A stretch of DNA of 64,000 nucleotides from Coprobacillus sp. (lineage in GTDB: Bacteria; Bacillota_I; Bacilli_A; RFN20; CAG-826): assembly GCA_021203905.1 (NCBI GenBank), contig JAJQAG010000004.1, forward strand, positions 129,939-193,938, in the 5' to 3' direction. Below the pieces are notes generated by a model that made no database searches, was not told the DNA's origin, and worked only from the letters and a program-made list of their open reading frames with translations. A program made the position numbers and the translations under genes. Of the stretch, positions 3,481 through 28,808 are shown piece by piece. The first letter of the stretch is position 1; each line of letters opens with the position of its first letter.

Positions 3481-3804
3481 TTAATCTATGGTCACCACTT
3501 CACTGACGGAGACATATTGGGGATAACTTTCTTTAATTGTCTTTAGAGAAGTTAACATTGTCTCGATGACCACTTTGTCATGCTCGCTTGGTTCTTCTTT
3601 GGCCACCAAGCTCGCATATCCACTTTCGAGTTGGAGAGAGAATTTATTGCTGTCTTGGAGAGAATTGAATCCTCCAGTGACGATACTTGAGACAGCGGCA
3701 CATATGAGATCTTCACCTTTTTCAGCGCTTCCACTATGACCAGTGACGAGAAGTGTTACCGGAGTGGTGCTATGATTTGAATAGGTGTAGACAACTTTAA
3801 TCAT
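3481..3804 (-). CDS. prp: ribosomal-processing cysteine protease Prp (YsxB family)
   Basis: 107 aa. The conserved [18 protein letters not shown] catalytic His/Cys region is present. The gene lies between rplU and rpmA as in Bacillus, and its start overlaps the rplU stop as ATGA. Confidence 0.85.
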
Positions 3805-4115
3805 TTGGTGTTGATACTTTCAATGACTAAGCATGTGTAGGGCTGACGATGGCCCATGGTTTTTCTCTCATTGGTTTTTGCTCGATAATGGAAAACGCGA
3901 ATTTTTCTTTCTTTGCCCTGTTTTTCCACTGTAGCGGTGACACTAGCGCCACTCACATAGGGTTTCCCAACAGAGTTTTTCTTACCGTCAGAGATGAATA
4001 GCACTTTATCGAGAGTGACACTTGAACCCTCTTCAGCGGGAAGTTTTTCAACATAGACATGTTGACCAACCTCGACACGGACTTGCTTTCCACCCGTTTC
4101 AATGATTGCGTACAT
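3801..4115 (-). CDS. rplU: 50S ribosomal protein L21
   Basis: 104 aa, beginning [17 protein letters not shown] Shine-Dalgarno lies 7 nt upstream. Confidence 0.95.
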
Positions 4116-4262
4116 TACTTGGCCTCCTTATTTTAAATTCACTAAGGACTCGCTATGAAGGTCGAGAAGAATCTCAGTTAGTAAACCTTTTCTAGGCGGT
4201 TGTAGCTAGTGAGGCTAAACAACGCTTGATACTATAACATAGTTATAATATGCCCGCAAGAA
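4116..4262 (-). promoter_or_regulatory. rplU promoter (TTGCGG-17-TGtTATAGT) plus a leader of about 125 nt, possible L21 leader
   Basis: On the minus strand an extended -10 TGTTATAGT sits with 17-nt spacing to a TTGCGG -35. A long structured 5' UTR precedes the L21 Shine-Dalgarno. The L21 autoregulatory leader of Firmicutes is established knowledge, but the fold was not verified here. Confidence 0.35.
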
Positions 4263-4276
4263 GTTTTTTAAGAGGG

Positions 4277-4972
4277 TTAGAGTTTTTTATAGATGATGTC
4301 TTTATTATCCGCAAACGAATAATAACCTTGACCAGAGATGATAATGTGATCGAGAAATTCAATTCCGACTTTTGCACTATCCTCTAAAAGAAGGAAGGTG
4401 AAATTGATATCATAGTCACTCGGTGTGACCACCTTTTGACCAGAGGGGTGATTATGAATAATGTAATACTTTTTCCCTCCTCTCTTTAGTATTTCCCCTA
4501 AAATTTCATTTTCATTCACCGACATATCACTACTGGTTCCTTGGTAGAGATCGCTCTCATGAATGATCCTTCCACTTTTAGAGATGGAGACGACGATAAG
4601 GTGTTCTTGTCCTTCGTCTCGAAATAGGCTTTGGTATTTGTTAATGAGGTATTCTTTGATATCCCCAATCGAGGCACACTCTTGAATCTGATAGTTGTAT
4701 CTTTTAGCGATTTCTATGACCGCGGCAATCTTGGTGGCATTGATCTTATTAATCCCTTCATGGGCCACTAAATCATCCATGGTCATTTCTCCTACTTTTA
4801 CTAGTCCTCCTTCCATTAAAATAGATTGACTTATCTCAATCGCGGACATCTTCTTAGTTCCACTAGAGATAATCAGAGCGACGAGTTCTGTATCAGAGAG
4901 GGCGCTAATCCCATAACGCATGGCTTTTTCTCTCGGTCTGAGTAAAGGTGGGATGTTTTTTATCTTTCCCAT
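4277..4972 (-). CDS. radC: RadC-like JAB/MPN domain protein (UPF0758)
   Basis: HNHPSG JAMM motif and an N-terminal HhH segment LSDTELVALI. The start is set at the ATG at 4972 (MGKIKNIPPLLRPRE), which overlaps the stop of the upstream small ORF as TAATG. The track start at 4993 is an alternative. Confidence 0.85.
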   Translation of the reverse strand: MGKIKNIPPLLRPREKAMRYGISALSDTELVALIISSGTKKMSAIEISQSILMEGGLVKVGEMTMDDLVAHEGINKINATKIAAVIEIAKRYNYQIQECASIGDIKEYLINKYQSLFRDEGQEHLIVVSISKSGRIIHESDLYQGTSSDMSVNENEILGEILKRGGKKYYIIHNHPSGQKVVTPSDYDINFTFLLLEDSAKVGIEFLDHIIISGQGYYSFADNKDIIYKKL

Positions 4973-5154
4973 TAAGCCCACTGAAATTCCCATCCACCAG
5001 GGATGGTGACCTCTCCACTGTTACTGGTGGCAATACGACAGACAAGAGCGGCAACTACCGCTGCGGCAAGGATTGCCATTACTGCGGTAAGAGTTATGGC
5101 TTCACCAACGACCTCTTGACGCATCTCGTCATCATTCATTTTTGTTAGTGTCAT
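4972..5154 (-). CDS. small membrane protein of 60 aa
   Basis: The central stretch ITLTAVMAILAAAVVAALV is hydrophobic. A strong GGAGG Shine-Dalgarno lies 7 nt upstream. The gene is translationally coupled to radC and is preceded by a 24-nt motif shared with the gene at 20633. Confidence 0.45.
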   Translation of the reverse strand: MTLTKMNDDEMRQEVVGEAITLTAVMAILAAAVVAALVCRIATSNSGEVTIPGGWEFQWA

Positions 5155-5161
5155 TCTTTTT

Positions 5162-5186
5162 CCTCCTTTGTCTATATATTCATTAG
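5162..5186 (-). repeat. conserved leader motif copy A: CTAATGAATATATAGACAAAGGAGG on the coding strand
   Basis: Near-identical to positions 21092-21120 (one T indel). It ends in the Shine-Dalgarno of the downstream gene. Confidence 0.5.
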
Positions 5187-5236
5187 TAAGAGATTTCTCT
5201 CTTTTGGGAGAAAAATGTTAAAGAAAAGACACAAAA

Positions 5237-5262
5237 GAAAAAATCACCGAAGTGATTCTCTC
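5237..5262 (-). terminator. intrinsic terminator after valS
   Basis: The minus strand reads AATCACttcgGTGATT followed by TTTTTT. Confidence 0.6.
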
Positions 5263-5285
5263 TTTTATATACAAAGTATATAAAC

Positions 5286-7865
5286 TTACTTTAACTTAGA
5301 GAGCAAGGCCTTGAGATTCTCTTCGTGTTTCTTCTTCTTCGCTTGCTCAAGCTCGACCTTTTCTTTTGGGGCTTTAGAGACAAAACTTGGATTAGAGAGT
5401 AAGCTCTCACATCTATTGATCTCACTCTTAAGATATTCTATCTCTTTTAAGATGGCGTCTTTGTCAGTCTCTTCTTCTACAATTAAGAGATCAAAACTAG
5501 AGAATGTATAGAGAGAACCTTCTTTCTTAGAGATGTTTTTATCATTAATTGTGAGCTCATCTGTAAAGGTAAATCTCTTAAATAAAGGAGTAATATCATA
5601 ACTATATAGACCTTTATAGTTGAGAGAGACGACTAACCCTTGATTGGGAGAGATTTTTCTCTCAATTTTATAGTTTCTCACGACCTTAATAGCACTCACT
5701 AAAGAATCTATGAGTTCATCACTCTCTTTATTAACCCACTTTGCGTGATACTTAGGATAGGTTTCTAAGTTCACACTTTCTCGGTGAGAAGGAAGTGATA
5801 AATAGATCTCTTCACTGATAAAAGGAGTAAAAGGAGAGAGCATTAAAACAATATTCTTAAGGCAATAATAGAGGACTTGATAAGTAACCTCTCTCTCCTC
5901 ACTTTGAAGAGAAACTTTACTCATCTCGATATATGTAGAGCAGAAATCATCGTAGACAAAGTCATAGAGAAGAGAACTCGCTTGATTAAAGTTATAGTGT
6001 TCCATATGGGTGGTGACCTTCTTTGTCACCTCTTCCATCTTATTAATAATCCATTGATTAAGAGGAGATAAGTCTAAACGAGAGAGATTCTTTACTGGTT
6101 TAAAGCCTTCTGGTAAGACACTTAAGACATAGCGTGCGGAATTATAGACCTTATTTAAGTAATTAGAGGCCGCAACGACCTTATTTTCACTATATCTCAT
6201 GTCAAGACCTGCTGCGGTATTCGTGGTAAGGAAATATCGAAGAGCATCCGCACCATATTTATCGATAACCACAAGGGGATCCACTCCATTACCTAAGGTT
6301 TTTGACATCTTTCTTCCTAATTCATCACGACAGAGACCATGAATGATGACATTACGGAAAGGAATCTGGTTATTAAAATGGAGAGATTGGACCATCATAC
6401 GACTGACCCAGAAAAAGATTATGTCATATCCTGTAATAAGAGCGGAGGTTGGGAAATAACGCTGAAATAATGGATCTGTAGTATCAGGCCAGTTTAAAGT
6501 GGCAAAGGGCCAAAGAGCACTTGAGAACCAAGTATCTAAGACATCACTATCTTGTTCGTAGTTATTAATATCTTTTGGGGCCTCTTCACTAACGATGACA
6601 GAGCCATCAATCTTTGAATAATACGCTGGGATACGATGTCCCCACCTAAGTTGACGAGAGATACACCAATCTTCGATATTATCCATCCAGCGGATAAGAG
6701 TATTATTAAATCTTTGTGGGATAAAATTCACTTTCCCTTTACCCTTTTGTGTCTCAATGACTTTTTGGGCAAGAGGTTTCATCTTCACAAACCATTGTTT
6801 GGAAATCATTGGTTCCACAACAGCGCCAGAGCGCTCACTATGTCCCACAGAGTGAGTGATGGTTTCTTCTTTGATAAAATCATCATTATCTATTAGTTCT
6901 TTTAATAAAGCTTCACGACAATCATATCTATCTAGGCCTTGATATTTCCCGCAGTGCTCATTCATCTTCCCATCTAGCGTCATAATCACAGGTTTCTCGA
7001 GATGATATTTCTCCCCAATAAGAAAGTCATTAGGATCATGAGCGGGTGTACATTTCATCACTCCCGTTCCAAAACTAACATCGACATATTCATCACAAAT
7101 TACTTCAATTACTTCTTTATTTGCGGGATTTATCACTTTTTTACCGATATATTTTGTATATCTTTTATCTTTAGGATTCACTACAAGACAGACATCTCCA
7201 AACATGGTCTCGGGTCTTGTTGTGGCCACTGTGAGATATTCATCACTATCCACTAAACGATACTTAAAGTAATACATCTTTCCTAGATCATCGCTATGGA
7301 TAACTTCAACATTACTTAAAGCGGTCATCTGCACTGGATCCCAGTTTATGATCCTCTGTCCTTGATAGATAAGTCCTTCCTTATACATTTGGACAAAGAC
7401 TTTCTTTACCGCTTTTTGCATCCCCTCATCAAGGGTGAATCTTTCCTTAGAATAATCAAGGCTTAATCCAAACTTCTTCCACTGCTCATGAATGCTAGAT
7501 GCATACTCATCTTTCCATTGCCAAGCGTAGGTTAGGAATTCATCACGACTTAAATCATGAGGATTAATCCCACTATTTCTGAGTTTCTCACTGACTTTAG
7601 CTTCAGTAGCAATACCCGCATGATCCATTCCTGGAAGGAATAAGACATCATATCCTTTCATTCTTTTATAGCGGCAGATAATATCTTGTATGGTCGTGTC
7701 CCAAGCATGTCCTAAATGGAGTTTTCCGGTCACATTAGGGGGAGGAATAACGATGGAATATGGTTTCTTAGTGAGATCACCACAAGTAAAATAACCTTTC
7801 TGACACCAGGTTTCATACTTCCCTTCTTCCACTTTTTTTGGATCGTATCTTTTATCCATAACCAC
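5286..7865 (-). CDS. valS: valyl-tRNA synthetase
   Basis: 859 aa. HIGH-type motif region (GKLHLGHAW) and KMSKTLGN. A C-terminal coiled coil is present. Confidence 0.97.
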   Translation of the reverse strand: MVMDKRYDPKKVEEGKYETWCQKGYFTCGDLTKKPYSIVIPPPNVTGKLHLGHAWDTTIQDIICRYKRMKGYDVLFLPGMDHAGIATEAKVSEKLRNSGINPHDLSRDEFLTYAWQWKDEYASSIHEQWKKFGLSLDYSKERFTLDEGMQKAVKKVFVQMYKEGLIYQGQRIINWDPVQMTALSNVEVIHSDDLGKMYYFKYRLVDSDEYLTVATTRPETMFGDVCLVVNPKDKRYTKYIGKKVINPANKEVIEVICDEYVDVSFGTGVMKCTPAHDPNDFLIGEKYHLEKPVIMTLDGKMNEHCGKYQGLDRYDCREALLKELIDNDDFIKEETITHSVGHSERSGAVVEPMISKQWFVKMKPLAQKVIETQKGKGKVNFIPQRFNNTLIRWMDNIEDWCISRQLRWGHRIPAYYSKIDGSVIVSEEAPKDINNYEQDSDVLDTWFSSALWPFATLNWPDTTDPLFQRYFPTSALITGYDIIFFWVSRMMVQSLHFNNQIPFRNVIIHGLCRDELGRKMSKTLGNGVDPLVVIDKYGADALRYFLTTNTAAGLDMRYSENKVVAASNYLNKVYNSARYVLSVLPEGFKPVKNLSRLDLSPLNQWIINKMEEVTKKVTTHMEHYNFNQASSLLYDFVYDDFCSTYIEMSKVSLQSEEREVTYQVLYYCLKNIVLMLSPFTPFISEEIYLSLPSHRESVNLETYPKYHAKWVNKESDELIDSLVSAIKVVRNYKIERKISPNQGLVVSLNYKGLYSYDITPLFKRFTFTDELTINDKNISKKEGSLYTFSSFDLLIVEEETDKDAILKEIEYLKSEINRCESLLSNPSFVSKAPKEKVELEQAKKKKHEENLKALLSKLK

Positions 7866-22913: not shown

Positions 22914-25621
22914 CTTGGGCAAAGATATGAATCTTTCTCTACCTCTATGGCGTCATAATCATAGTTCCAACATCTCTCACAATAGTGTCCACTATGACGA
23001 TGGACATCAATGATTGAGTGGTTATATTCATCTCCTTTAATTTCTTCTTTATAGATATTAAATCCGGAGACGACAAAGAGATTCTTTAAATCTTCTTTGT
23101 TTATTTTATCAAATAAGTGGGAAATATTTACATCTTTTATGAAAATATTTACTTCCGCTTCTTGACTAGAACCAATAGTTCCTTTTTCTCTCTCCACTTC
23201 AAGTGCCTTTAAGACTTCACTTCTTAAAGCCTTAAAGAGTTCGTATTCCAAGAGAAGAGCGTCATCCACTTCCCCCTCTTTTGGAAAGTCGAGCAATTGG
23301 ACATATTCCTCTCTTTTCCCAGGAAGATTCTTATTAAATTCGTCCATGGTGAAAGGAAGAATAGGATTAAGTAATCTTAAGATAGATTCTGAGACGAGAT
23401 ACATCACTGATTGCATCTGGTTCCTTCTCTTTGAATCTTTTTCATCACAATATAAAGTGTCTTTAGCAATATCTAGATAGAAGGAAGATAAATCACTAGA
23501 AAGGAAAGTCGTAATATAACTCATTCCGTTCGCGTAGTTATATTCATCAAAACTCTTTCTCACTTCTCTCTCGACATAGTGTAAACGATTAAGGATATAG
23601 GTATCCACAAGGGTAAAATCACTAGTAGTATTCTTGGGATCAAAGTCCACAAGATTCCACGACATAAACTTTAAAGTATTACGGATTTTACGATAGACTT
23701 CACTTACTTGTTTAATGATATCTTCACTCATTCTCACATCGCTTTGATAGTCGATTGTCCCGCAGTAAAGACGAACGACATCGCTACCATACATATCTAT
23801 CACTTTAAGTGGGTCAGTACCATTACCTTTAGACTTAGACATCTTCTCCCATTTTTCATCCATGATAAACCCATGGGTGACCACGGCATCATAGGGGGCG
23901 TGACCATAGACTGCGGTCGAGATAATAAGGGAAGAATTAAACCATCCACGATACTGATCGCTCCCTTCTAAGTAGAGATTTGCGGGGAAATTTAAACCTT
24001 TATCGACGATATTGTACATAAAGGAAGAACCACTATCAAACCACACATCCATGATATCGACTTCCTTAGTAAATATCCCGTGGGGAGAATGAGAATTTTT
24101 ATAGCCTTTAGGGAGTAAATCTATCGGGTCTTTTTCATACCATACATTTGACCCATTTTCTCTCACTAATTTAATAATATTATCAAAGACTTCTTTCTCA
24201 ATAATGGGAGTCTTATCTTCACAGTAAATAATGGGGATAGGAACACCCCACGCTCTCTGACGAGAGATACACCAATCGCTACGATCTTTAATCATATTGA
24301 CCATTCTTACTTCTCCCCAACTTGGGTACCATTTTACCTTATGAATTTCATTTAGAAGCTTCTCTCTAATGGGTTCAATTGAGCAGAACCATTGATCCGT
24401 CGCTCTAAAGATTAAAGGTTTATTAGTTCGCCAATCATGAGGATAGGAGTGAATAAAGGTTTCATGTTTTAAAAGATGTTGATTCTTCGCGAGAATATCA
24501 AGAACGACATCATTTCCTTTCTCGTAGAATAAACCACTTAACTCTGCTCCGACACTCTCATCAAAATATCCCTTCTCATCCACTGGGCAATAAGGTTCAA
24601 TCCCATATTTTTGACAGACAATAAAATCATCCACACCATGTCCACCAGCGGTATGGACAAATCCCGTTCCAGCGTCATCGGTAACATGAGTTCCAAGAAT
24701 AATGGGAACTACTCTCTCATAGAAAGGATGAGAACATTTAACAAGTTCCACTTCTTTTCCCTTAAATTCCCGAATGAGTTTCACATCTTTAAGATTAAGT
24801 TCATTCACTAATTTATCTTTTAGAGAAGTAAGGAAGGCTAAGTTTCCTCTGTTTGTACAATACACTCCATAAGTAAAATCTGGATGAGCGGATATCGCCA
24901 TATTTGCAGGTAAGGTCCATGGGGTGGTGGTCCAAATAACCACTTGATCACCTTTGTTTAAGATGCCATTTCCTTCAATGACATCAAAGGCCACATAGAT
25001 AGAGTGGCTTTCAACATCTTTATATTCAATCTCTGCTTCTGCTAAAGCGCTTTCACTACTCGGGGACCAATAGACAGGCTTAAGGCCTTTATAGATAAGA
25101 CCATCAAGCGCCATCTTGGCGAAACACTCTAGCTGGCTAGCTTCGTATTCTTTTAAAAGGGTGAGATAAGGTTTCTTAAAATCTCCCACGACTCCTAAAC
25201 GTTGGATTTCTTCTTTTTGTCTTTCCACTTGCTCCAAAGCATAGTCTTTACATTGGTCACGGAACTGGACAATAGGTGTGGTCTTTCGATTGATTCCCAT
25301 CGCTGTGACTTTATTTTCAATAGGGAGACCATGGGTATCCCAACCAAAGACAAAGGGTGTTTGATAACCACACATATTCTTATAACGGATGGTGATATCT
25401 TTAAGCACTCGATTAAGCATATGCCCACAGTGCATATCTCCGTTAGCGTAGGGCGGTCCATCATGGAGAGTGTACTCTGGACACTCTTTTCTTTTCTCCA
25501 TCATTAAAGAGTAGAGATCCTCATCTAACCACTTCTTGATAAGAACTGGTTCTTTAGAAGGGAGGTTTCCTCTCATCTCAAAATTACTTTTATTCATCAG
25601 TAAGGTGTCTTTATAATCCAT
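22886..25621 (-). CDS. ileS: isoleucyl-tRNA synthetase
   Basis: 911 aa. HMGH-type motif region, KMSKSKGN, and a C-terminal Zn finger CERC...CPRC. Confidence 0.97.
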   Translation of the reverse strand: MDYKDTLLMNKSNFEMRGNLPSKEPVLIKKWLDEDLYSLMMEKRKECPEYTLHDGPPYANGDMHCGHMLNRVLKDITIRYKNMCGYQTPFVFGWDTHGLPIENKVTAMGINRKTTPIVQFRDQCKDYALEQVERQKEEIQRLGVVGDFKKPYLTLLKEYEASQLECFAKMALDGLIYKGLKPVYWSPSSESALAEAEIEYKDVESHSIYVAFDVIEGNGILNKGDQVVIWTTTPWTLPANMAISAHPDFTYGVYCTNRGNLAFLTSLKDKLVNELNLKDVKLIREFKGKEVELVKCSHPFYERVVPIILGTHVTDDAGTGFVHTAGGHGVDDFIVCQKYGIEPYCPVDEKGYFDESVGAELSGLFYEKGNDVVLDILAKNQHLLKHETFIHSYPHDWRTNKPLIFRATDQWFCSIEPIREKLLNEIHKVKWYPSWGEVRMVNMIKDRSDWCISRQRAWGVPIPIIYCEDKTPIIEKEVFDNIIKLVRENGSNVWYEKDPIDLLPKGYKNSHSPHGIFTKEVDIMDVWFDSGSSFMYNIVDKGLNFPANLYLEGSDQYRGWFNSSLIISTAVYGHAPYDAVVTHGFIMDEKWEKMSKSKGNGTDPLKVIDMYGSDVVRLYCGTIDYQSDVRMSEDIIKQVSEVYRKIRNTLKFMSWNLVDFDPKNTTSDFTLVDTYILNRLHYVEREVRKSFDEYNYANGMSYITTFLSSDLSSFYLDIAKDTLYCDEKDSKRRNQMQSVMYLVSESILRLLNPILPFTMDEFNKNLPGKREEYVQLLDFPKEGEVDDALLLEYELFKALRSEVLKALEVEREKGTIGSSQEAEVNIFIKDVNISHLFDKINKEDLKNLFVVSGFNIYKEEIKGDEYNHSIIDVHRHSGHYCERCWNYDYDAIEVEKDSYLCPRCHHLMEKK

Positions 25622-25876
25622 ACTCTCTCCTTAAAAAGAAATAAAAAGCATCCATATCTAAGGACGCTTTCGCGCGGTACCACCTTAGTTCTAGAGAACC
25701 CTCTCTAGCGCTTCATTAGCCTAATAACGTTTAGAAAACGGAGACTTACTCTTAGTTCAGTACTCATAAGAAGGAGTGATATCTATACATCTCTTTCTTG
25801 TTGACCTTTCCATCCACTGCCAACTCGCTGTAAGGGGGTGATATATAAACTTGTCTCCTAATTGCTTACTAACAAG
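25622..25876 (-). promoter_or_regulatory. T-box leader of ileS
   Basis: On the minus strand the T-box sequence CTAAGGTGGTACCGCGCGAAAGCGTCC (plus 25671-25688) is followed by a terminator hairpin and TTTTTATTTC, then the ileS Shine-Dalgarno. Confidence 0.8.
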
Positions 25877-25882
25877 CAAGAT

Positions 25883-25911
25883 TATTATAGAAATAAAGTT
25901 TCTATAACGCA
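25883..25911 (-). promoter_or_regulatory. promoter of the ileS leader (TTGCGT-17-TATAAT)
   Basis: Perfect -10 at plus 25883-25888 and -35 at plus 25906-25911 on the minus strand. Confidence 0.6.
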
Positions 25912-25990
25912 AGGAAGTTTATAAATAGTATTAGACAGACTATGCTCTAATATCGATAAGTATGTTCCACTTTTAAGCAACTATTTTGCA

Positions 25991-26392
25991 GTGGCAACCC
26001 CAGATTACAGAACTTATCAAGATATGAACGATAATGTAATCCGTTACAACACTTACAGGAATCGATGGATTGGTGCGTATCTACAAGAACGGGGAATCAA
26101 AGTCATTCCAACCATTGGGTGGGGTAGTAAGCAAACCTTTAAGTATGCCTTTTCCGGGGTGGAAAAAGGAAGTGTCGTGATTGTCTCCACAATTGGTTGC
26201 CAAAAAGTTAAGAAAGATTTTATAAGGGGGTATAACAAGATGCGAAAAGTTATTAAACCATCGATAGTTATCGTTTATGGGAAACTAATCCCAGGAATAA
26301 AAGGCAAAATCATAAATTTTGCTTATGAAGACGCATTTTTAGGACATGATATATCCAATCATATCGAAAATATCAAAAAGGGGGTAAAATAA
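25991..26392 (+). CDS. hypothetical protein, island gene 1, possibly a fragment
   Basis: 133 codons, Lys/Ile/Gly-rich. It is open only from a GTG with no recognisable Shine-Dalgarno. The in-frame upstream region is open back to 25925 with no ATG. Confidence 0.4.
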   Translation: MATPDYRTYQDMNDNVIRYNTYRNRWIGAYLQERGIKVIPTIGWGSKQTFKYAFSGVEKGSVVIVSTIGCQKVKKDFIRGYNKMRKVIKPSIVIVYGKLIPGIKGKIINFAYEDAFLGHDISNHIENIKKGVK

Positions 26393-26394
26393 AC

Positions 26395-26805
26395 ATGGGT
26401 GGACGAGGAGCATTTGCCGATTCTAACAATCAAAATTTCACCTTTGTTGAAGGTGGCCAAACTTACCGAACAATTAAAAAATATAAAGGGTTTGAAACAA
26501 TCGAAAAAATTGATCAAACCAAAAATACTGCTATCCCTTTTTATTCCCATTCTGGAAGCAACATATATGTAGTAGTCCAACAGAATAAGATTAAAAATAT
26601 AACAGTGTACGGAGAAAACCACAATGTAGTTACAAGTATTGATTTTTACAAAAAGCACCACGGAGTGATTCCCCATACGCATCCTCATGGGATTCATACA
26701 AATGATGGACCCGGAATCCCACCAACAGAAGAAGAATGGAAGTTGATACGATACATCAAAAAGAAAACGAGGTTAAAATGTTTCAATGATCAAAGCACCA
26801 ATTAA
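26395..26805 (+). CDS. hypothetical protein with His-rich motif HTHPHGIH, island gene 2
   Basis: 136 aa. The ATG lies 2 nt after the gene-1 stop, with an AAGGGGG Shine-Dalgarno. Confidence 0.55.
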   Translation: MGGRGAFADSNNQNFTFVEGGQTYRTIKKYKGFETIEKIDQTKNTAIPFYSHSGSNIYVVVQQNKIKNITVYGENHNVVTSIDFYKKHHGVIPHTHPHGIHTNDGPGIPPTEEEWKLIRYIKKKTRLKCFNDQSTN

Positions 26806-27283
26806 TTATTATGGCGAATGCAAATCAATTAATATCTTCTATGACTACTACTATCCACTAAAGAGTGTTGAAGATTTTTGCAATGTCTGCATGGTTTTTG
26901 AGTACGATGGTGTCCTCTATCTTCTAGATGAGGAGATGGTGGATCCAGACATATTTCCTAACAATAAAAATGACGGATGCGATTACTCCATGAGAAGAAT
27001 CTACCGCTTGAAGTTACAAGACGACGGAACTTACCAAAGAACTTTACTTGCTACATATAGAACACTAGCAAAAGTCCTCACGGAATGGAAAGTAGACGGT
27101 GTCCCCTTAGAATCCATGTTTGGAATGGACAATATGAGAGTAATCGAAATGTATTCTCGAGAGTATCGAGAAGAAAACACACTAAACTTTAAAGAATATG
27201 CCGAGAGGTATAAGAGAAATAATGAACCAAACGACAAAAAGACCAAAAAACACAAAAAGAAATGGTGGGAAAAATTGCGATGA
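26786..27283 (+). CDS. hypothetical protein, island gene 3, paralogue of gene 4
   Basis: 165 aa with a Lys-rich tail. It overlaps gene 2 by 20 nt. Confidence 0.6.
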   Translation: MIKAPINYYGECKSINIFYDYYYPLKSVEDFCNVCMVFEYDGVLYLLDEEMVDPDIFPNNKNDGCDYSMRRIYRLKLQDDGTYQRTLLATYRTLAKVLTEWKVDGVPLESMFGMDNMRVIEMYSREYREENTLNFKEYAERYKRNNEPNDKKTKKHKKKWWEKLR

Positions 27284-27663
27284 CAGACAATCACTTTGAT
27301 TCACTAGATGAATTCTACAATTTATACTATGAACGCCGCCCTTATCCTGGACCCGATTACATGGATATGGATTTCTATTACAAAGGAAAGTTTTATTGGT
27401 ACATGGAAGAAGGCATCATGAGAGAAGATTTTCCAAATTTATACCACGATGGGGGAGATTATGCCGTTAGAATTGCTTATGAATTGATACCAGAAGATGG
27501 GAAGCCGATGTCGAAAGAAAAGTACGATTTTACAAAGTGCAAGTGTATATTATTAGGAAAATATCGCTTGATGGAGGATATTCTCAATGATTGGATAATC
27601 GATGGGAAGCCATTTAAAGATGTCCTCATTGATAAAGAGACACATATTTACGATATTAGATAG
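27280..27663 (+). CDS. hypothetical protein, island gene 4, paralogue of gene 3
   Basis: The start is reassigned to the ATG at 27280 (MTDNHFD), which overlaps the gene-3 TGA as ATGA and is preceded by a GGTGGGA Shine-Dalgarno. It shares the motifs Y.G..Y...EE, DFPN and DG.DY..R..Y.L with gene 3. Confidence 0.6.
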   Translation: MTDNHFDSLDEFYNLYYERRPYPGPDYMDMDFYYKGKFYWYMEEGIMREDFPNLYHDGGDYAVRIAYELIPEDGKPMSKEKYDFTKCKCILLGKYRLMEDILNDWIIDGKPFKDVLIDKETHIYDIR

Positions 27664-27671
27664 TTCCTATT

Positions 27672-27709
27672 AAAAAAAAAGGTGGCTGGGCCACCTTTTA
27701 TTTATTGTT
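27672..27709. terminator. bidirectional intrinsic terminator
   Basis: A9 followed by GGTGGCtggGCCACC followed by TTTTATTTATT. It serves both the plus-strand island and ftsZ on the minus strand. Confidence 0.65.
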
Positions 27710-28808
27710 TCAAGAAAGAGGGGAGAATGTTAGATTTATCTAACTCCTCCTTCTCTTCACTCTTTTCTGGCTCACTCTCTTCAATGGGAGCCTCCTCAAT
27801 AGTAGGACGAGTAATTGGATCCACAAGCAAGGGTTGAGAGAAATCCATCTCTTGTTCAAAGTCCGCGGCAATGACACTGACGATGATTTCATCATCGAGT
27901 TGATCATTAATGCTCACTCCAAACTTGATATCAATATCTCTTCCCGCGGCTTCGATAAGATATCTCACCGTATCTTGAGCATCAAAGAGAGAGACATTAG
28001 TGCCACAAGTCACAGAGACAATGGCGCGTCTTGCTCCAGCAACACTGGCTTCTAGTAAAGGAGAGGAGATGGCGCTTAAAGCGGCGTCTTTTGCCCGATT
28101 AGGTCCTTTTCCATAACCACTACCAATGAGTCCCACTCCAGAATGTTGAAGGGTATTTCTCACATCCGCAAAATCGAGGTTGATAACTGCGGGGAGTAAG
28201 ATGAGATTCACCACTGTCTTCACAGATTGCGATAAGACTTTATCGCTTTCCGCAAAAGCACTAGGAATAGGAATTGTTCCCACATTTCTAAGGAGTTGAT
28301 CGTTAGAGACGACAATAATTGAGTCGACATTTTCTTTAAGTTTATTTAAGCCATCGATGGAGTTATTGATCCTTGTCTGTCCCTCAAAGGTAAAAGGACG
28401 AGTGACAATGGCCACGACTAGCGCACCTGCATCTTTCGCGATACGAGCGACCACCGGAGCGGCGCCTGTACCAGTGCCACCACCCATACCGGCAGCGATA
28501 AAGACAAGATCCGCACCATTAACCATCTCTCTAATGGCGTCAGCGCTCTCTTCTGCGGCTTTTTCTCCGACTTCAGGAACACCCCCGGCTCCTAAGCCTC
28601 CCGTCGTGTTCTCTCCTAAAACTGTCCTATTTGATGCTTTAGAAGAGGAGAGAGCTTGTTTATCAGTATTCAAAACATAGAAGGTGACATTAGCAATTTC
28701 ATCATCAATCATACGATTGACAGCATTGCTTCCTGCTCCCCCCACACCAATGACGACAATTTTGCATGCGGGTTCAAAATTATCTAAGTCATAGTTCCCA
28801 CTAGCCAT
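27702..28808 (-). CDS. ftsZ: cell division GTPase FtsZ
   Basis: GGGTGTG tubulin signature. The start is set at MASGNYD (ATG at 28808) with a GGAGG Shine-Dalgarno. The track ORF extends 22 codons upstream into ftsA. Confidence 0.95.
   Translation of the reverse strand: MASGNYDLDNFEPACKIVVIGVGGAGSNAVNRMIDDEIANVTFYVLNTDKQALSSSKASNRTVLGENTTGGLGAGGVPEVGEKAAEESADAIREMVNGADLVFIAAGMGGGTGTGAAPVVARIAKDAGALVVAIVTRPFTFEGQTRINNSIDGLNKLKENVDSIIVVSNDQLLRNVGTIPIPSAFAESDKVLSQSVKTVVNLILLPAVINLDFADVRNTLQHSGVGLIGSGYGKGPNRAKDAALSAISSPLLEASVAGARRAIVSVTCGTNVSLFDAQDTVRYLIEAAGRDIDIKFGVSINDQLDDEIIVSVIAADFEQEMDFSQPLLVDPITRPTIEEAPIEESEPEKSEEKEELDKSNILPSFLKQ

Follow-up and report, generated by a model that had tools for sequence, protein, structure and literature searches.

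What are the four small genes that separate ileS from ftsZ in a 64,000-nt stretch of a Coprobacillus sp. genome (GenBank assembly GCA_021203905.1, contig JAJQAG010000004.1, positions 129,939 to 193,938 of the forward strand; hereafter the window), and what might they do? Comparison with related genomes and with phages indicates that a five-gene mobile cassette entered the ftsZ-ileS interval and that the four open reading frames (ORFs) represent its 3' portion; the full set consists of an XRE-type helix-turn-helix (HTH) gene, a DUF4417 gene, and genes 2, 3 and 4. The intact cassette is considered, at a probability of roughly 50%, to be a damage-responsive toxin/neutraliser conflict module (addiction or abortive-infection defence), of which the window holds a decapitated copy. 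The anatomy of the cassette is secure; each of the functional steps is one that we infer.

Anatomy of the locus and the mapped deletion

The cassette is flanked by rluD-lspA-ileS on one side and by ftsZ-ftsA-rsmH-mraZ on the other. Its features are listed below in window coordinates; L044 is an assembly of a sister species, and g34 denotes the family to which genes 3 and 4 belong.

25657-25872, minus strand: ileS T-box leader, the left boundary of the cassette (Rfam RF00230, 84.4 bits, E 4e-18)
25917-25930, no strand: deletion junction, 14 nt between two blocks alignable with the sister (blastn, window against L044)
25931-26392, plus strand: gene 1 homology region, a 5'-truncated DUF4417 remnant; homology begins at 25931 and the first possible start is GTG 25991
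25991-26392, plus strand: gene 1, open from GTG 25991, without a Shine-Dalgarno sequence, with a same-frame stop at ~25919
26395-26805, plus strand: gene 2, 136 amino acids (aa), with AAGGGGG ~10 nt 5' of its ATG, starting 2 nt past the gene 1 stop
26786-27283, plus strand: gene 3, 165 aa, g34 family, overlapping gene 2 by 20 nt
27280-27663, plus strand: gene 4, 127 aa, g34 family, starting at an ATGA that overlaps the end of gene 3
27677-27699, both strands: bidirectional intrinsic terminator common to the cassette and the convergent ftsZ (terminator scan; 10-bp stem with 5 G-C, 3-nt loop)

This layout had already been described in a first-pass annotation made from the letters alone, and its particulars are confirmed: the four plus-strand ORFs with their gap and two overlaps, the absence of any start for gene 1 other than a GTG, the Shine-Dalgarno sequence of gene 2, and the terminator, which scores on both strands because an A run precedes the stem and T-rich sequence follows it. 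The ileS T-box leader falls below the Rfam gathering score of 93, yet the match spans the whole model. By the presence of homologues elsewhere for all four, and by their ratios of nonsynonymous to synonymous substitution rates (dN/dS) against the sister genome (0.05-0.17), the ORFs are judged to be real genes.

Gene 1 matches DUF4417 (PF14386) at 114.9 bits against a Pfam cut-off of 28.9 (E 3.9e-33) and also matches PHROGs families 8680 and 940. It covers only positions 69-176 of the 183 in the DUF4417 profile and is not a complete domain; when aligned with 11 full-length members it lacks P26 and the near-invariant F63 and D66. The sister species, reached via P0124, a protein that the search for g34 homologues returned and that shares 82% identity with gene 3, carries the lacking portion. 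By blastn, window 25521-25916 corresponds to L044 5300-5696 at 92% identity, a block that includes the T-box leader, and window 25931-27789 corresponds to L044 7147-9000 at 79% identity; L044 5697-7146 has no counterpart in the window and contains a 294-aa HTH gene and DUF4417 codons 1-68. Read from this alignment, a 1.45-kb deletion in the window genome took out the regulator and the first 68 DUF4417 codons, and what is left as gene 1 is the last two-thirds of a DUF4417 gene, as the first-pass suspicion of a 3' remnant of a larger gene had anticipated. On its left side the deletion stops ~45 nt above the T-box leader of ileS, where the sister-conserved block ends; a good -10/-35 pair for ileS, judged by eye, is located inside that block. 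Compared with residues 69-221 of the L044 DUF4417 protein, gene 1 shows 85.6% protein identity, a dN/dS of 0.06-0.09 and zero stops; because the remnant is stop-free, this similar and under such a low ratio, the deletion appears recent relative to the species split.

Full-length DUF4417 relatives are stand-alone proteins of 210-273 aa (221 aa in the sister genome), with an alternating strand pattern and invariant D, N, Q, T and S residues. In phages the domain is often fused to a ParB-type domain that binds nucleoside triphosphates; the DUF4417 of bacterial cassettes has MFNYD where the phage type has FxDDYQ. No functional study of DUF4417 was found in the literature searched. In many Javan prophage records (e.g. 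Javan258, L185 2360-3031) the DUF4417 gene beside a gene 2 homologue is annotated as 'DNA modification methylase', a label that was probably carried over from fusion proteins, since no methyltransferase family matched in the scanned DUF4417 proteins.

The cassette neighbourhood contains no integrase, phage structural or lysis genes and does not qualify as a prophage; type VII secretion genes do not flank the cassette either, and no direct or inverted repeats that would mark an insertion mechanism were found around it. Further copies of DUF4417, gene 2 or g34 are absent elsewhere in the 64-kb window, and the guanine-cytosine content of the cassette is just slightly below that of its flanks.

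The sister cassette, selection and the origin of the insertion

Three assemblies of the sister species (L044, L045 and L047) carry five genes in the same ileS-ftsZ gap, in the order 294-aa XRE/CI-type HTH protein, 221-aa DUF4417 protein, gene 2 (136 aa), gene 3 (162 aa) and gene 4 (127 aa). Protein identity and dN/dS between window and sister are as follows.

FtsZ: 97% identity, dN/dS 0.03
IleS: 95% identity, dN/dS 0.03-0.04
FtsA: 91% identity, dN/dS 0.06-0.07
Gene 4: 85% identity, dN/dS 0.05-0.15
Gene 3: 81.5% identity, dN/dS 0.09-0.17
Gene 2: 67% identity, dN/dS about 0.16 (dN 0.22-0.25)

Across the four cassette genes dN/dS spans the 0.05-0.17 given above, against 0.03-0.11 for ftsZ, ftsA, ileS, lspA and rluD; by this measure all cassette genes are under purifying selection, and since the ratio averages both lineages, a recent inactivation in the window genome stays compatible with it. 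The cassette has been kept at one site while the flanking DNA diverged by ~12-15% between window and sister, and its retention at the same position in a second species means that it is not a strain-level oddity. A bounded allele swap was considered as the source of the higher divergence of gene 2 and was rejected, the differences being spread over loop and tail segments. Two sister assemblies (L043 at ~70-75 and L047 at ~2164) have lost 1 nt from the run of G at the beginning of gene 2, the counterpart of window 26395-26402, so that ATGGGTGG is changed to ATGGTGG; the gene 2 ATG is then out of frame, while the remaining ORF is open and identical to that of L044 and genes 3 and 4 are intact. 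This deletion could be a recent inactivation, a homopolymer sequencing error or phase variation.

A search through FtsZ yielded 80 relatives (46-79% FtsZ identity); an FtsA-based genome scan gave none. Homologues of DUF4417, gene 2 and genes 3/4 are encoded in 0 of the 80, and the earlier description of the cassette as an interruption of a conserved block can accordingly be restated as a lineage-specific insertion. Since it is absent from these relatives and common to the window genome and its sister, the cassette was acquired by their common ancestor and vertically inherited since. The comparison of the ileS-ftsZ gap across related genomes, which the first-pass annotation had proposed, reveals a variable interval: ftsZ and ileS are both present in 37 relatives and lie less than ~500 nt apart in 22 of these, with a gap of 1-5.7 kb in the other 15. 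The larger gaps that were sampled contain a secreted Endonuclease_1 gene, spoIIGA-sigE-sigG-sepF, or metabolic genes. Large Endonuclease_1 genes occupy the gap at L056 9203-11881, L058 9104-10864 and L071 8241-11357, with Big_2 also present in L056 and L071; a similar single large unannotated ORF lies in the gap of six more relatives, and the interval is variable across the family.

Gene 2 and its pairing with DUF4417 in phages

A profile search places gene 2 in a family of 2396 clusters at 90% identity (541 at 50%), whose members are nearly all stand-alone, His-rich proteins of ~130 residues without annotation. Invariant residues of the family are Y58, Y72, I82, D83, H88, P93, H94, H96, H101 and E114; an N-terminal MGGRGA is nearly invariant and a D...H...PHxH...H motif is conserved. 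The His cluster HTHPHGIH, singled out in the first-pass annotation as unusual, includes the three invariant residues H94, H96 and H101.

Every one of the 41 viral loci, of which 38 are viral contigs and 3 are phage records, has gene 2 adjoining a full-length DUF4417 gene that reads in its direction; both orders of the two occur. Where packaging genes are present, the pair is found between the portal gene and a MuF2-type minor capsid gene, or directly upstream of TerL-portal-MuF2; in Streptococcus phage A25, gp22 (DUF4417) and gp23 share a 4-nt overlap and lie directly ahead of TerS. Other cultured phages with the pair are phiNJ2, Str01, many Javan prophages, Dorea phage DO134P1 and Roseburia phage Jekyll, and on these records DUF4417 and gene 2 form a very common gene pair of temperate Firmicutes phages, including those of gut Firmicutes. 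No functional study of the pair was found in the literature. In two viral contigs (L040 at ~4383 and L041 at ~2430) ACG stands in place of the gene 2 Met codon, with a stop a few codons upstream in L041, and the gene 2 homologue overlaps the DUF4417 3' end by ~30-95 nt; the arrangement would fit translation from a non-canonical start codon, or fusion to DUF4417 by frameshift.

Ntox24 (PF15529) is the sole recurring Pfam family among gene 2 relatives, two ParB_N fusions aside. It is matched by 9/17 and by 16/94 diverse family members (the latter at E <= 0.01), with a best E of 1e-7; as far as these profile scores go, the gene 2 family is distantly homologous to Ntox24, and the window protein itself is not a member by score. 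The AlphaFold model of gene 2 (predicted local distance difference test score, pLDDT, 76) has seven strands and one C-terminal helix; Y58, Y72, H88, H94 and H96 are invariant or nearly so. No significant structural neighbour of this model was found in the PDB, and none at E <= 0.001 in BFVD. Among the best 150 of the 541 representatives there are no large polymorphic toxins: lengths run from 66 to 332 aa, no trafficking domain is present, and the longer proteins are ParB_N fusions or carry other extensions. In P0252 and P0292, a rare arrangement, a ParB N-terminal domain is joined directly to the core of gene 2, much as ParB is commonly joined to DUF4417 in phages; P0370, a candidate fusion of gene 2 with g34, was rejected as its C-terminal extension is not g34.

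Other searches with the cassette were negative: blastn against phage records and gene 2 and g34 searches of plasmids gave no match, PDB sequence searches with the gene 2, DUF4417 and g34 profiles returned chance-level matches only, and neither NCBIfam nor PADLOC matched DUF4417, gene 2 or g34. No nuclease or methylase family of Pfam, PADLOC or NCBIfam matches any cassette protein.

Genes 3 and 4: the g34 family

Genes 3 and 4, recognised as tandem paralogues in the first-pass annotation, are 29% identical over 109 residues (E 3e-12) and behave like immunity or antitoxin genes. Their family comprises 208 clusters of ~115-residue proteins, in which the conserved positions are aromatic or hydrophobic and there is no conserved Cys, His or acidic residue of catalytic type; the AlphaFold model of gene 4 (pLDDT 82.5) has an alpha+beta fold. 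Gene 3 carries a C-terminal extension of ~40 residues (window 27200-27283) with a Lys-rich end (KKTKKHKKKWWEKLR), which the sister species also has and other family members lack.

Gene 2 is directly upstream of g34 in 33 of 40 metagenome loci, which were sampled with g34 as the seed. The two overlap by 4 nt in six cassettes that were read and by 20 nt in the window and sister genomes. Each cassette has one to three g34 copies, with tandem arrays in the window, L044 and L133 (three tandem genes at 6088-7348). Neither tblastn of genes 3 and 4 against phages nor the g34 profile against viral contigs detected the family, except in L003 and L005, which are edges of integrated elements beside bacterial genes.

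Related cassettes in other bacteria

A recurring unit in bacterial and metagenome sequences consists of an HTH gene (~120 aa), an M78 peptidase gene (~176 aa), DUF4417, gene 2 and one to three g34 genes; from DUF4417 to g34, successive genes abut or overlap by 1-4 nt in six of the cassettes that were read. HTH and Peptidase_M78 genes lie upstream of this payload by Pfam in L003, L005, L048-L050, L052, L134-L137 and L178, and in L133 the pair was detected by a local hidden Markov model only. The pair is not present in the window, and the sister has a single 294-aa HTH protein without an HExxH motif. The match of the PADLOC capH model to the L044 regulator (E 5e-7) is confined to the HTH part, and capP has no match; PADLOC-DB 2.0 gives solely generic HTH matches, all for the regulator, and the cassette is not catalogued there.

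Neighbours of these cassettes include Fic, HEPN_Apea, MazE, type I and type II restriction-modification systems, serine recombinases and an AAA_14/DUF4143 ATPase, and by gene content the neighbourhoods have the character of variable regions rich in defence genes. A Fic-domain gene (387-416 aa) is divergent from the cassette HTH gene in eight loci (L048-L050, L052 and L134-L137, ~3539-5783) that span at least three chromosomal contexts; it may travel with the cassette. In L180 (5462-8074) a second DUF4417 fragment (161 aa) and an unannotated 137-aa gene on the opposite strand lie just downstream of the cassette.

Incomplete cassettes take several forms. Gene 2 persists as 3' remnants beside intact g34 in L051, L154 and L171/172, g34 stands as an orphan in L157, L174 and L181, and pairs of gene 2 and g34 without DUF4417 occur in L159, L162 and L182; L160 (4082-6348) reads DUF4417-g2-g34-g2-g34, a duplication of the gene 2 and g34 pair. 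From these loci, cassette decay is read as running in one direction, with g34 outlasting gene 2, and the state of the window, which has lost the regulator and the head of DUF4417 and kept genes 2-4 intact, fits that course. A 1102-aa ORF of L051 (4389-7697, no Pfam match) was entertained as a toxin bearing gene 2 and was rejected. It has taken the place of the regulator, of DUF4417 and of the first half of gene 2 in a cassette that is otherwise identical, and genes for a type IV secretion system coupling protein and a Clp protease lie near it.

Proposed function and its alternatives

We propose that gene 2 encodes the effector, a His-dependent domain distantly like Ntox24 whose probable target is nucleic acid; the g34 proteins would be non-enzymatic, stoichiometric neutralisers that bind the effector, and DUF4417 would serve as an obligatory enzymatic or accessory partner. 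By analogy with ImmR/ImmA and CapH/CapP, the HTH(-M78) module would turn the operon on after DNA damage or phage attack, regulation apparently being delegated to this separate gene rather than to g34. In the window copy the switch would be lost and DUF4417 activity is probably lost; survival of the gene 2-3-4 core would reflect the harm done when the neutraliser goes before the toxin. The traits of a toxin/immunity pair are present: the small genes are adjacent, co-directional and translationally coupled, and the partner outlives the upstream gene, as seen in a g34-seeded and hence biased sampling. The statement of the first-pass annotation that no function is recognisable was too strong, given the DUF4417 match of gene 1 and the distant Ntox24 kinship of gene 2, and of its fallback readings, a small defence or addiction module and a phage or integrative-element remnant come close to the evidence.

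A number of points weigh against a toxin/neutraliser module. The link of gene 2 to Ntox24 is distant, and the window protein itself scores 18.6 bits (E 0.0024), below the Pfam cut-off of 24 bits. The g34 proteins have no Pfam, NCBIfam or PADLOC match and no HTH or ribbon-helix-helix domain, unlike the DNA-binding, autoregulating antitoxins of classical type II systems. Phage gene 2 occurs without a detectable g34 homologue; a toxin there would therefore need another neutraliser, or gene 2 alone is not toxic. The loci were sampled with g34 as the seed, a choice that favours cases of g34 lacking gene 2. After the deletion, the plus strand ahead of gene 2 shows no promoter-like site, which makes expression in this genome uncertain. 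The linkage of gene 2 with DUF4417, lastly, fits a two-subunit enzyme equally well.

A more far-reaching proposal, advanced tentatively, is that HTH-M78-DUF4417-gene 2-g34 constitutes an undescribed anti-phage or abortive-infection system, in which bacteria would have captured a phage head/packaging gene pair and supplied it with a dedicated inhibitor and with a switch that senses damage; in the window a decapitated copy would be left, whose effector/inhibitor core survives by addiction. Thousands of sequences from Firmicutes phages and prophages contain DUF4417 and gene 2 beside packaging genes, and the model Streptococcus phage A25 is among them. The distant toxin-domain kinship of gene 2, the bacterial versions with an added neutraliser-like gene and ImmA-type switch, and the restriction/Fic/HEPN setting together give a testable hypothesis, namely that this is either a new conflict/defence module or a new phage effector; the window genome presents the module decaying from its 5' end while the effector/neutraliser core stays.

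The alternative that survives best, although it is rather unlikely, holds that DUF4417 and gene 2 form the two subunits of a DNA-processing enzyme that belongs to the phage packaging module and has nuclease or DNA-modifying activity, with g34 as a regulatory or structural subunit, and that the bacterial cassettes are captured copies interfering with phage DNA or packaging, or parts of satellite-like elements, without any toxin/antitoxin logic. It draws on the linkage of the pair in both orders (41/41), its fixed place beside TerS/TerL/portal/MuF2, the ParB_N fusions of both DUF4417 and the gene 2 core (P0252, P0292), the alternating strands and enzyme-like invariant polar residues of DUF4417, the depositors' label 'DNA modification methylase', and the label 'nuclease' on PHROG 940. 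An enzyme of this kind would leave unexplained why g34 is restricted to bacterial cassettes, is found in tandem and can remain as an orphan once gene 2 and DUF4417 have gone, why gene 2 and g34 are paired without DUF4417 in three loci, and why genes 2-4 are free of stops and frameshifts here after the truncation of DUF4417; moreover, none of its proteins matched a nuclease or methylase family.

It is improbable that the cassette is an inert, decaying remnant of a prophage or mobile element whose genes have no current function in the window genome. The truncation of gene 1, the loss of the regulator and of any native promoter, the lack of an upstream plus-strand promoter-like site, the start-codon frameshift of gene 2 in some sister strains and the phage type of the core pair are all as such a remnant would have them; yet the four ORFs are stop-free, their dN/dS (averaged over both lineages) is like that of the flanking housekeeping genes, the cassette has stayed at one site across ~12-15% flanking divergence, and no other phage genes are nearby.

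The orphan toxin C-terminal/immunity cassette of the LXG/RHS/WXG (type VII) kind favoured by the first-pass annotation, with gene 1 as the toxin tip and genes 2-4 as immunity or accessory genes, had the truncated first gene, the coupled small genes, the duplicated downstream genes and the known Ntox24 domains of LXG, WXG, RHS and CdiA toxins to recommend it, and is very improbable now that gene 1 proves to be DUF4417 (E 4e-33) with stand-alone full-length forms (221 aa in the sister) rather than C-termini of large toxins, that the toxin-like gene is gene 2, that its best 150 representatives are at most 332 aa and have no trafficking domain, and that the locus has no flanking type VII secretion genes.

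Comparison with known systems

The toxin/neutraliser reading can be set against five groups of described systems. For Ntox24, Zhang et al. 2012 predicted an RNase toxin domain of all-beta fold in which Y, H and H are conserved, and found it in toxins of the type V and type VII secretion systems and MuF toxins and also in apparent type II toxin-antitoxin systems with an uncharacterised antitoxin; it is further listed as a CdiA C-terminal domain in Pseudomonas, and no published activity assay for it was found in the literature. Gene 2 resembles it in being small and in preceding a small uncharacterised partner gene, and its predicted beta-rich fold and conserved Tyr and His residues may correspond to those of Ntox24, and Ntox24 is likewise MuF-associated. 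The gene 2 family differs in that its members are stand-alone proteins rather than the tip of a large secreted toxin, are paired with DUF4417 in phages, and have the MGGRGA N-terminus and the D...H...PHxH...H motif.

Of the phage DUF4417 and ParB-DUF4417 proteins (PHROG 8680 and 940; e.g. A25 gp22), gene 1 is a clear member with the same downstream partner, but the window copy has lost the first third of the protein including two near-invariant residues. The XRE HTH and M78 pairs ImmR/ImmA, DdrO/IrrE and CapH/CapP turn on mobile-element or immune operons after DNA damage, and CapH/CapP-type control of immune operons is published; in related cassettes the HTH gene (~120 aa) likewise overlaps the M78 gene (~176 aa) on the payload strand, and the cassette neighbourhoods resemble defence islands. 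The window lacks such a pair because it was deleted.

With toxin/immunity and type II toxin-antitoxin loci the cassette shares small coupled genes, tandem divergent downstream partners and persistence of the partner after upstream decay; it differs in its obligatory third component, DUF4417, in a partner without a DNA-binding domain, and in the absence of a secretion or delivery domain. The MuF polymorphic toxins of temperate phages (Jamet et al. 2017) are alike in their position at the portal-MuF junction of Firmicutes prophages and in their Ntox-type domains, whereas gene 2 stands by itself, upstream of muf or close to it, does not extend MuF at its C-terminus, and in phages has no g34-like gene downstream. 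The pairing of gene 2 with g34 may be what Zhang et al. noted as the toxin-antitoxin type of Ntox24; the five-gene architecture and its phage origin appear to be undescribed.

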